Of a stretch of 64,000 bases of DNA, positions 54,291 through 55,822 are shown piece after piece. The position numbers and the translations under genes are program-made. Location of the stretch: the NCBI GenBank assembly GCA_012518355.1, contig JAAYSP010000014.1, positions 5,569-69,568 on the forward strand, in the 5' to 3' direction. How positions within the stretch are numbered: the stretch's first letter is position 1; each line of letters begins with the position of its first letter. The DNA is from a candidate division WS1 bacterium (GTDB lineage: Bacteria; Armatimonadota; Zipacnadia; Zipacnadales; UBA11051). The notes under the pieces were generated by a model, which ran no database searches, was not told the DNA's origin, and was given only the letters and a program-made list of their open reading frames with translations.

Positions 54291-54908
54291 CTACTCGCGG
54301 CTCAACCCATCATCCAGCAACACTCGCTCTAATTCGGCCATCTGTGTAGGAATGCTGGCATCAACCTGACCGTAATCGCTGTGCAGTATACAGCCCCCTC
54401 GAGCGATTGAGACATCGGCCACGATTTCAAGCTCTGCACGGACCGGCGCGAGCCAGGTGCCTTCCGAAAGCGTCTGGCGGAGCACCTGCGCATCTTCTGG
54501 ACACACTCGCACGACTATTGCCCCCTCCTCTCCCAAATCTACCAGTGCCCGTTCTACCATTCGGGTCACCACAGTGTCATCCATCTCGAGTTCGCGCTCG
54601 ACGATGCAGCCCACGAGGTCCATAATCAATCGGATCATGGCCGGTTTCAGATCTTGTAGGAGTTGTGATCGCTGTCGGCTCAAGCTGGTGATCAGGTCAC
54701 ATAGCAGCCGTTGGGTGCGCTGCAGGCTTTCGGCCGACACCTGCACTGAAGACTGCTCTGCCTGCGGTGGATTGACAGGCTCCACCGGCGGCGGGTTGAG
54801 TGCCAGATACGGCGGCTTGTCGCCCGGGGGGCTAATCAGCCTACTCAGTGGCCTGACTTCTTCATGCTCCGGTATCTGTCCGGCTTTCATTATCCGCGAC
54901 AAGGTCAA
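54291..54908 (-). CDS. fliH: FliH/SctL ATPase regulator
   Basis: 205 aa. C-terminal GGCILHSDYGQVDASIPTQMAEL motif. Confidence 0.6.
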   Translation of the reverse strand: MTLSRIMKAGQIPEHEEVRPLSRLISPPGDKPPYLALNPPPVEPVNPPQAEQSSVQVSAESLQRTQRLLCDLITSLSRQRSQLLQDLKPAMIRLIMDLVGCIVERELEMDDTVVTRMVERALVDLGEEGAIVVRVCPEDAQVLRQTLSEGTWLAPVRAELEIVADVSIARGGCILHSDYGQVDASIPTQMAELERVLLDDGLSRE

Positions 54909-55822
54909 CTCTCCTCTGACTGTGAGCGCTGAGTACAGGCAAGTGTCTGCTGAAGGGAAGCTGCAACAATTTGCGCTATCTCCGGATGCATGGGCCGTTG
55001 GGGCAAGTTCTGTTCGATGTCTAGTGCACTCCGAAACTCTCGCTTGAGTCTAGTTTGGTCATGTTCATCTAGCTGCACGTAAACTGCCCCGACCAGCTCT
55101 GGCCGCTGCTGTGAAAGGAATTCAGCAAGACGCTTACGATGTACAGAATGGAGGAAGCTCCAGGCGTTTTGACGTACTGGCGGGGCCTTCGCTACTGCAG
55201 ACCGGCGTGTCGTATAAATCCAGAGTGCCGCAAATGCTGCCAAGCCCAGCAGCAGCCCAACGATGATAAACGGCGTATGGAAGCCTTCAGAGCGCTCTGA
55301 GTCCGCCAGCGCTTCTCTCGACATCGCATCGAGGTTGGCGACGGGGCGTCCATTGTCGAAAAGCACTCTACCCTGTCGGTCGGTGAGCAGTATAGATTCG
55401 GTTGCCACTCTGGGTTCGATATGTTGAATGATGGAGACAACCGTCTGGCAAAACTCAGTGGTGAGGTGAAAGTTGGCCGCCGTCTGTAATTGCACTGCGG
55501 CACCGAGAGTGTCGGGATCATCAGAATTGAGAGTCAGGACCACTCGCGCCGAGATGACCGGCTCTAAATCGCCAAGCATTGCCGACAGTTGGCGCGCGCG
55601 TCGCTCCATATGGTATTCAGATGTGCCGGGGATGGCTGAAGGCAGCTCGAAAATGCCTCCAAGTCCTGTGCCGGGGGGTGGCGTTGTCCCGGAATGCTGC
55701 GCAATGGTGGGAGCAACTGCAACGATGCCTAATCCAACGCCAATGCATAGTGCCCGCAACCAGGTGATGGCCACCTGTATGCTGGTCGATGGGCACGCGC
55801 CGGCTGTATTTCGGCAACGCAT
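54905..55822 (-). CDS. Short FliF/SctJ-like inner-membrane ring protein (single RBM2-like domain, one TM, FliG-N-like cytoplasmic tail)
   Basis: 305 aa. N-terminal signal/TM, segment homologous to the FliF/SctJ ring-building motif (EYHMERRARQLSAMLGDLEPVISARVVL...ILLTDRQGRVL), a TM (FIIVGLLLGLAAFAALWIY), and a tail LAEFLSQQRPELVGAVYVQLDEHDQTRL that resembles the FliG/MgtE N-terminal motif. Confidence 0.5.
   Translation of the reverse strand: MRCRNTAGACPSTSIQVAITWLRALCIGVGLGIVAVAPTIAQHSGTTPPPGTGLGGIFELPSAIPGTSEYHMERRARQLSAMLGDLEPVISARVVLTLNSDDPDTLGAAVQLQTAANFHLTTEFCQTVVSIIQHIEPRVATESILLTDRQGRVLFDNGRPVANLDAMSREALADSERSEGFHTPFIIVGLLLGLAAFAALWIYTTRRSAVAKAPPVRQNAWSFLHSVHRKRLAEFLSQQRPELVGAVYVQLDEHDQTRLKREFRSALDIEQNLPQRPMHPEIAQIVAASLQQTLACTQRSQSEES

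Follow-up and report, generated by a model that had tools for sequence, protein, structure and literature searches.

In the canonical flagellum, for example of Salmonella and Vibrio, the MS ring is built from FliF (~550 amino acids, aa), whose inner ring, formed by ring-building motif (RBM) 2, surrounds the FliPQR-FlhB export gate and whose RBM3 forms the S-ring and collar that sockets the rod. The rotor/switch protein FliG (~330 aa) is a separate chain: its N-terminal domain (FliG_N) binds FliF, its middle domain (FliG_M, or ARM_M) carries the EHPQR motif and binds FliM, and its C-terminal domain (FliG_C) bears the torque helix that contacts MotA. In the injectisome, or non-flagellar type III secretion system (T3SS), the gate is surrounded by SctJ, a lipoprotein with two RBMs that forms a pair with SctD and is connected by SctK to the sorting platform. 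To our knowledge, a natural fusion of FliF with FliG_M has been described earlier only from Chlamydia, among few flagellar genes of unclear function. Here we characterize a gene for a 305-aa protein of this general kind, which opens a flagellar-type export operon in a 64,000-nucleotide stretch of DNA (hereafter the window, to which all coordinates refer) from a candidate division WS1 bacterium of the Armatimonadota (Zipacnadia; assembly GCA_012518355.1, contig JAAYSP010000014.1).

The FliF of Chlamydiaceae (~330 aa), which has been termed a FliF-FliG fusion, comprises a signal sequence, an RBM2, a second RBM-like region, a transmembrane (TM) helix and a cytosolic FliG_M homologue (Bergeron 2016, PeerJ, PMC4768692); that paper also cites FliF-FliG fusions engineered in Salmonella. 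Flagellar export genes have been kept, and are apparently functional, without a flagellum in Lysobacter enzymogenes OH11, according to the abstracts of two reports (PMC7688988, PMC7277350), and flagellar, MotAB and chemotaxis genes have been reported in Armatimonadota of the Guaymas Basin (Carlton et al. 2023, PMC10290634). The system described below does not appear, for Armatimonadota, in the literature we searched. We propose, with a probability that we place at about three in four, that the product of the gene serves as both minimal inner-membrane ring and C-ring adaptor in a flagellum-derived, non-rotating type III export apparatus. The joining of RBM2 to FliG_M is a known architecture; what is new is its single-RBM variant, its presence in another phylum and its placement in a complete, dedicated export operon.

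Domain organization of the ring protein

The ring gene (54905-55822, minus strand, as are the features of the gene and its operon below unless stated otherwise) occupies the longest reading that its open reading frame (ORF) allows, the ORF list having it begin with the earliest start codon that follows the preceding stop, and the first-pass annotation, made from the sequence alone, was right that 305 aa is far shorter than FliF. A ribosome-binding site read from the sequence (55823-55840), GGGAG, stands 7 nt upstream of the start codon (ATG, 55822), and only a 332-bp intergenic region, shared with a divergent NAGPA-family gene, separates the two genes; because the ORF is maximal, the start is so marked and the gap is so short, the longer gene with an upstream start and further RBMs that the annotation had envisaged can be excluded. 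The 332-bp region yielded no convincing promoter. Comparison with a 94%-identical relative gave ratios of nonsynonymous to synonymous substitution (dN/dS) of 0.28 for the whole gene, 0.12 for the RBM and 0.25 for the tail; the ORF is real and under purifying selection, and proteins of this kind are currently annotated "hypothetical".

The window protein taken alone matched Pfam YscJ_FliF at E=0.0058 (17 bits; cut-off 24.4 bits) and, among NCBIfam models, NF004606 at E=0.0099 (15.1 bits; cut-off 297 bits); NF004606 (PRK05934) we take to be the model of the chlamydial CT719-type FliF-FliG fusion. A word-indexed protein search yielded only two relatives, and the family profile added little there. 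An exhaustive HMMER scan of 1.84 billion representatives retrieved 51 relatives, each a cluster at 50% identity; they measure 220-350 aa, except for one 84-aa entry that is probably a fragment, nearly all are matched over most of their length, and the same architecture recurs throughout the 51 clusters. These relatives furnished the ring-family alignment, A2, and 46 of their tails a separate alignment, A4. NF004606 is the NCBIfam model matched by most family members (31/51, best E=3.7e-8).

Within the family the ring-building domain is recognized readily. Pfam YscJ_FliF (PF01514) matches 48 of the 51 members (best E=2.5e-16), and the family profile finds FliF RBM2 at E=5.5e-17 (Vibrio) and E=4.9e-13 (Salmonella, residues 134-223), as against only ~1e-3 to 1e-2 for the injectisome proteins PrgK and EscJ. 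TIGR00206 reaches a best E of 4.3e-9 among members and is not among the window protein's own matches; the ring protein lies below the curated cut-offs of both TIGR00206 and TIGR00207. An AlphaFold2 model built with alignment A2 (overall pLDDT, the model's confidence score, 82) contains exactly one alpha-beta-beta-alpha-beta ring-building motif, with pLDDT >95, at residues ~65-157; the domain as a whole is assigned to residues ~62-157 (55352-55639). In a Foldseek search with this model FliF RBM2 chains rank first, including 6sd2 and the 22-mer 8fte (E of 1e-7, vs 1e-4 for PrgK/EscJ), and the isolated inner RBM2 ring of 6sd2, "RBM2inner", superposes with a TM-score of 0.82 and a root-mean-square deviation of 1.6 Å. 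The identification of a single motif of RBM2 type, which the first-pass annotation had also made, is therefore decisive by virtue of the family profile and the fold; the match that it called clear is, for the single sequence, a borderline one. RBM1 and the RBM3/beta-collar are not present, the model having one RBM and ~140 periplasmic residues in total. The FliF C-terminal family PF08345, which true FliF sequences carry and which the annotation had named for checking along with YscJ_FliF and FliG_N, is matched neither by the window protein nor by family members.

The predicted TM helix spans residues 183-208 (55199-55276) in the AlphaFold model, coincides with a hydrophobic block conserved in A2 and is followed by a positively charged cytoplasmic stretch. 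This is the one TM segment of the first-pass annotation, which had overlooked that the N-terminus is hydrophobic as well (residues ~20-41). Residues 1-41 (55700-55822) comprise a positive start and a 15-residue hydrophobic core ending in P-x-x-A|Q, of which P38, A41 and Q42 are conserved in alignments A2 and A3; AlphaFold models a helix at 13-43. Since the hydrophobic stretch is short and ends in this conserved motif, it is probably a cleavable Sec signal peptide. Neither A2 nor A3 shows a conserved cysteine at position +1 of the signal region, as a lipobox would demand.

The cytoplasmic tail is modelled, in the full-length structure, as five to six helices at residues 222-304 with pLDDT >90. 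Its most conserved stretch is FLSQQRPELVGAVYVQLDEHDQ (residues 235-256); R240 is conserved in at least 90% of the 51 relatives, and QRPE in the window protein, ERPE in the family, is the counterpart of EHPQ. The motif had been noticed in the first-pass annotation and likened to the N-terminal FliG/MgtE-N repeat, of which the likeness to FliG holds and the assignment to FliG_N or MgtE_N does not. Pfam FliG_M (PF14841) is matched by 16 of the 51 members (best E=4.3e-5) and MgtE_N by two; five weak matches to FliG_C (PF01706) overlap the same ARM repeat as FliG_M, and FliG_N (PF14842) is not among the Pfam families listed for the 51. The C-terminal 75 positions of the family profile match FliG_M structures (1lkv, E=2.5e-6; 3ajc, 4fq0, 4qrm_B and 3soh_B), and every FliG match of the family in the PDB falls in the M domain. 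The tail-only profile A4 matches FliG_M of Thermotoga maritima (FliG residues ~106-184) over 74/86 positions at E=1.1e-6, with ERPEV of the family aligned to EHPQT; compared pairwise by hhalign, the 46 tails match Escherichia coli FliG over residues 110-150 only, at E=0.0083. A model of the tail alone (pLDDT 88) returns FliG_M chains as all of its top Foldseek matches. By these comparisons residues ~219-296, with QRPE (54935-55168), are assigned to FliG_M and not to FliG_N. A FliG_C with its charged torque helix is not present, the M-domain match using up the ~90-residue tail.

The C-terminal FliG-binding peptide of FliF was considered as another identity for the tail. In hhalign with a three-sequence alignment, the part of E. 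coli FliF that binds FliG (490-548) was matched by tail residues 237-295 at E=0.06 (FliG, E=0.4), and with the 46 tails the match to the FliF C-terminus is weak (E=0.068 over 14 columns). It was judged weaker than the match to FliG_M (E=0.0083 pairwise; 1.1e-6 database-wide). The suggestion of the first-pass annotation that one protein unites an MS-ring remnant with a vestigial C-ring adaptor gains support from the FliG homology of the tail and from a conserved gene order without fliG.

The export operon, its relatives and its surroundings

The operon runs from 55822 to 44240 in the order ring-FliH-FliI-FliJ-like-FliM-like-FliN-FliO-FliP-[antisense lipoprotein]-FliQ-FliR-FlhB-FlhA-FliA/WhiG. 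The gene for FliH, the ATPase stator or tether (54291-54908; Pfam FliH, E=2.7e-21), overlaps the ring ORF by 4 bp through a TTG start at 54908, as first annotated, a second TTG 6 nt downstream being an equally plausible start; fliH is translationally coupled to the ring gene. Equally in keeping with the annotation, no fliG lies between the two genes, in the window or in 14 related loci. There follow a FliI/SctN-family T3SS ATPase (52911-54284; TIGR01026, 569 bits, above cut-off); a coiled-coil protein called FliJ-like from its position and size (52466-52903; no family match for the window protein), whose syntenic gene in locus L014 carries PF02050 FliJ; a FliM-like protein of 287 aa with a C-terminal SpoA domain (51606-52469; FliMN_C, E=2.8e-15); a FliN/SctQ-C SpoA protein (51281-51613; FliMN_C, E=2.3e-18); FliO, an assembly factor of flagellar type (50908-51291; TIGR03500, E=7.7e-9); and the export-gate subunit FliP (50151-50927; Pfam FliP, E=1.2e-61; fliP model 199.7 bits vs yscR 137 bits). 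Beyond the antisense gene lie FliQ (48634-48852; TIGR01402/TIGR01403 at ~2e-12), FliR (47882-48628; TIGR01400, E=1.6e-19), the membrane half only of FlhB (47007-47729; 240 aa, matching to ~position 241 of the 348-position flhB model), a very divergent export-gate subunit FlhA (45001-47058; TIGR01398, 311 bits with a cut-off of 772, vs 235 bits for SctV) and, at the operon's end, a FliA/WhiG-family sigma factor (44240-45004; TIGR02479, 250 bits, cut-off 189.6). A 391-aa ORF on the opposite strand (42996-44171, plus) stands directly downstream of fliA.

Flagellar models outscore Sct models for FlhA, FliP and FliR, and since all three fall far below the equivalog cut-offs, the system is very divergent. 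The truncation of FlhB, which removes the C-terminal autocleaving substrate-switch domain, is conserved, at the same length, in all related loci, and the autocleavage motif NPTH of that domain is absent from every real ORF of the 64-kb window. In the FliM-like protein, the presumed partner of the FliG_M tail, the segment adjoining SpoA aligns with E. coli FliM 203-320 (hhalign). Its conserved N-terminal domain of 200 aa has no sequence match and holds two similar segments of the form W-x-x-x-V-x-x-G-x-V-x-G-x-x-x-x-P, which recall the pseudo-twofold CheC/FliM_M fold. The gene between fliP and fliQ (49047-49889, plus strand) encodes a lipoprotein of 280 aa with an invariant L-[SG]-G-C lipobox and without any match in Pfam, NCBIfam or the PDB; it occupies the same place in every Armatimonadota locus (L007, 14575-15411; L008, 7218-8156; L009, 15668-16522; L010, 16031-17209) and could belong to the periplasmic part of the system. 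The window was found to hold no gene for rod, hook, filament, stator or secretin, and no flgM-like ORF was seen among its gap ORFs, which were inspected by eye (one, later scanned, is DUF503).

This arrangement is strongly conserved. In 14 of 14 related loci examined, those of the more distant members P0012, P0018, P0051 and P0057 included, fliH directly follows the ring gene, and the gene order is the same in near-identical contigs (94% identity) and in a 42%-identical one. Six genome loci, found with an alignment of six close sequences, come from Armatimonadota metagenome-assembled genomes (MAGs) of Ca. Zipacnadia and "Armatimonadia"; in the Armatimonadota loci synteny extends over the whole operon, with the antisense lipoprotein and the truncated FlhB, and into the flanking genes (ilvE-like, clpC and NAGPA), and 13 genes keep the same order from lineage to lineage. 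When proteins of the window are compared with those of the MAG loci, identity is 62-77% for FliI, FliP, FliQ and FliN, 72-89% for the neighbouring ClpC, IlvE-like and NAGPA proteins, 36-43% for the ring protein and 33-46% for FliJ, the FliM-like protein, the N-terminal half of FlhB and the lipoprotein. The core enzymes are thus about as conserved as their housekeeping neighbours (FliI 71% and FliP 73%, vs ClpC 80%), and the pattern of identity and dN/dS is that of a functional machine with fast-evolving scaffold parts, not that of a decaying remnant. In every Armatimonadota locus the operon is flanked by the NAGPA-family phosphodiester glycosidase (56155-57006, plus), a ClpC-type ATPase (57138-59615, minus) and a class IV aminotransferase (60434-61345, minus). 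These conserved flanks could reflect genome order or a functional link to NAGPA.

The occurrence of flagellar genes in these organisms can be read from 34 Zipacnadia columns of a KEGG table (Supplementary Table 8 of PMC10290634). The source of the table also supplied one carrier of the operon: locus L006 comes from its MAG Meg22_1012_Bin_300. That MAG is credited with one copy each of fliF, fliG, motA and flgB/C/G/H/I/K and with two each of fliH and fliI (PMC10290634), so that the operon and canonical flagellar genes coexist in it. In the same table, flagellar structural genes and duplicated fliH/fliI occur together in 11/34 Zipacnadia MAGs; 10/34 have fliH/I/O/P with none or one of ten structural genes and no fliF or fliG KEGG orthologue. 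Because the miniature ring protein escapes the fliF orthologue, which does not recognize it, these patterns fit a separate export system that coexists with a true flagellum or has outlived it. The export-only MAGs keep fliA and one to four flgM genes, which suggests that a secretion-coupled sigma-28 checkpoint has been retained.

The remainder of the window holds housekeeping genes (nusA-infB-truB, ffh-rimM-trmD-rplS, clpC), carbohydrate-active enzymes and a BatA-D/MoxR operon. The last, a complete BatA-BatD/MoxR/DUF58 "aerotolerance" operon (1752-9955, minus), comprises TPR-SH3, BatD, TPR, two VWA-BatA, an unknown, DUF58 and a MoxR AAA protein. Two tandem paralogous secreted proteins of Kelch-type beta-propeller fold (35989-36963 and 37202-38215, both minus) adjoin a PL8 polysaccharide lyase (38439-41387) and a DUF1080/3-keto-disaccharide hydrolase (41896-42657); GFO/IDH/MocA oxidoreductases form another tandem paralogous pair (61639-62751 and 62832-63926, plus), with a third copy at 30806-31828. 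The ORFs of an M42 peptidase (10899-12680, minus) and a polysaccharide-synthesis-like membrane protein (12008-13588, minus) overlap, as listed, by ~670 bp; since the peptidase domain begins only at residue 279, the 593-aa M42 ORF has probably been given a start too far upstream. The ORF 33410-35755 (plus, 781 aa) and the 391-aa ORF downstream of fliA gave no Pfam or NCBIfam match.

Proposed mechanism and alternative explanations

The operon is best read as a separate export system, neither an injectisome nor the cell's flagellum, and from its parts a mechanism can be proposed. The ring protein would be inserted in Sec-dependent fashion, probably with cleavage of the signal peptide, and its periplasmic RBM2 would oligomerize into a ring of roughly 21-24 subunits that, like the SctJ ring or the inner ring formed by RBM2 in FliF, encloses the FliPQR-FlhB gate above FlhA. 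A single TM helix would cross the membrane and carry the covalently attached FliG_M into the cytoplasm, where the handshake between the FliF C-terminal peptide and FliG_N would no longer be needed. The [E/Q]RPE face of FliG_M is predicted to dock the FliM-like and FliN SpoA proteins, which in turn would keep FliH-FliI-FliJ in place beneath the gate. With RBM3, FliG_C and FlhB_C would go, respectively, the rod socket, torque generation and substrate switching; because RBM1, RBM3, FliG_N, FliG_C and the FlhB switch domain are missing, such a machine should export proteins but be unable to rotate or to build the usual rod, hook and filament.

Were the protein instead the MS-ring component of a working flagellum, FliG encoded elsewhere would dock on its tail, and the rod, hook and filament genes would also lie elsewhere. 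The three-sequence match of the tail to the FliG-binding region of FliF would suit this, FliA closes the operon as it does flagellar operons of Terrabacteria, and some Armatimonadota are reported to encode flagella (PMC10290634). That match, however, is overtaken by FliG_M when the 46 tails are compared; the RBM3 collar that holds the rod is absent, as is the switch domain of FlhB needed for hook-to-filament export; the carrier Bin_300 already has fliF and fliG of canonical type, with fliH and fliI in duplicate; and the ten MAGs with export genes have almost none of the structural ones. We regard a working flagellum as very unlikely. Still less probable in our estimation is the survival of a lost flagellar operon as decaying debris, the gene being a truncated fliF-fliG fusion without present function. 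The disappearance of RBM1, RBM3, FliG_N, FliG_C, FlhB_C and the rod and hook genes is what decay would produce, and the ring protein has diverged far beyond the neighbouring housekeeping genes; yet the ORFs are intact and 13 genes keep an identical order across lineages at such divergence, FliI, FliP, FliQ and FliN are conserved like housekeeping genes, dN/dS is 0.12-0.28, one architecture is maintained in 51 clusters at 50% identity, and the truncations are shared among relatives rather than random.

The least credible of the explanations considered is one that the first-pass annotation had raised, namely that the protein is SctJ, the inner-membrane ring lipoprotein of a non-flagellar T3SS. 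It can draw on TIGR02544, matched by 18/51 members (best E=5.9e-6), on the presence of PrgK and EscJ among the sequence and fold matches, and on a length of ~300 aa, nearer to that of SctJ than of FliF. The same searches nevertheless place FliF RBM2 ahead by more than ten orders of magnitude in the profile comparison (5e-17 vs ~1e-3) and first by fold, and the signal region does not end in a lipobox cysteine. There is one RBM and not two, and the FliG_M tail is foreign to SctJ. Neither the window nor the syntenic loci contain SctC, SctD, SctK or needle genes; the neighbours are of flagellar type, with FliO and a FliH-type stator protein present and with FlhA, FliP and FliR favouring flagellar models.

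Several observations nonetheless count against the explanation that we prefer, a non-rotating export apparatus with a minimal ring and adaptor. All searches with the single window sequence were sub-threshold, and ring formation is presumed by homology. Foldseek gives a weak structural likeness between tail and FliG_M (best E=0.44, TM-score 0.54-0.63); the equivalent of R160 in EHPQR could not be aligned, and the FliM-binding surface is only partly conserved. On the side of the putative partner, neither Pfam nor a PDB profile search, hhalign or a homologue search identified a FliM_M in the first 200 aa of the FliM-like protein. Finally, the operon is tied directly to the KEGG pattern in one MAG, Meg22_1012_Bin_300, and by extrapolation in the others, and the canonical fliF/fliG set is documented for that carrier and not for the window's own genome.

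Comparison with known machines and significance

The nearest counterpart is the Chlamydiaceae fusion, likewise a short protein (~300-340 aa) with an N-terminal signal or hydrophobic segment, RBM2, a C-terminal TM helix and a cytosolic FliG_M, encoded among genes that include neither fliG nor any for rod, hook or filament (PMC4768692). The two differ in that the chlamydial protein has a second RBM-like region at 165-235, where a ~25-residue helix of low confidence is modelled here, and in that the window protein falls far short of the NF004606 cut-off. The Armatimonadota tails alone, moreover, match genuine FliG models and not NF004606, so that common descent of the two fusions is unproven and they may be convergent. 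Their settings also contrast: a few flagellar genes beside an injectisome in Chlamydiaceae (PMC4768692), and a complete dedicated export operon in free-living Armatimonadota.

With canonical FliF and FliG the protein shares the sequence and fold of RBM2, the topology of periplasmic domain, TM helix and cytoplasmic tail, and a FliG_M with a motif of EHPQ type; its gene lies, as fliF does in E. coli, directly upstream of fliH-fliI-fliJ. Unlike them it lacks RBM1, the RBM3/beta-collar, FliG_N, FliG_C and probably the FliG_N-binding peptide, and it places MS-ring and C-ring adaptor functions in one chain. Engineered FliF-FliG fusions (Salmonella; Vibrio alginolyticus, PDB 8z4d/8z4g) indicate that covalent linkage is compatible with ring assembly, but they join full-length FliF to full-length FliG and support a motor, whereas only RBM2 and FliG_M are kept here. 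SctJ proteins (PrgK, EscJ, YscJ) are also small inner-membrane ring proteins with RBM folds and a C-terminal TM helix that surround the export gate; their lipobox, second RBM and SctD/SctK partners are not seen here, and they have no FliG-like domain. As to the residual T3SS of Lysobacter, the abstracts of the two reports mention no fused or miniaturized ring protein (PMC7688988, PMC7277350), and the Armatimonadota system differs further in that at least one MAG has it as a paralogue alongside a full set of flagellar genes.

A central question in the debate over the passage from flagellum to injectisome is how a rotary flagellum could be reduced to a machine for secretion alone. What is added here is a minimal design in a free-living phylum, encoded in a complete and strongly conserved operon and standing beside a normal flagellar set in at least one genome, a combination that argues for a functional module rather than debris. 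Flagellar surveys based on KEGG or Pfam miss such miniature rings because they are annotated "hypothetical". An RBM2 ring with FliG_M is possibly the smallest scaffold that a type III gate can have in the membrane, and it offers a tractable target for cryo-electron microscopy and for heterologous reconstitution of a minimal T3SS. More tentatively, and at somewhat less than even odds in our judgement, the operon could represent an undescribed third lineage of type III machine: flagellum-derived, non-rotary and export-only, an independent paralogue in Zipacnadia/Armatimonadota that is kept with or without a true flagellum and is built from an RBM2-only ring with covalent FliG_M around a gate with a switchless FlhB. 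Its exports might be envelope proteins or anti-sigma factors of FlgM type, by which it would control the FliA/WhiG encoded with it; the export-only MAGs, as noted, keep fliA and flgM. Such a machine would repeat, as an experiment of nature, the origin of the injectisome and might be a free-living counterpart of the chlamydial flagellar remnant.

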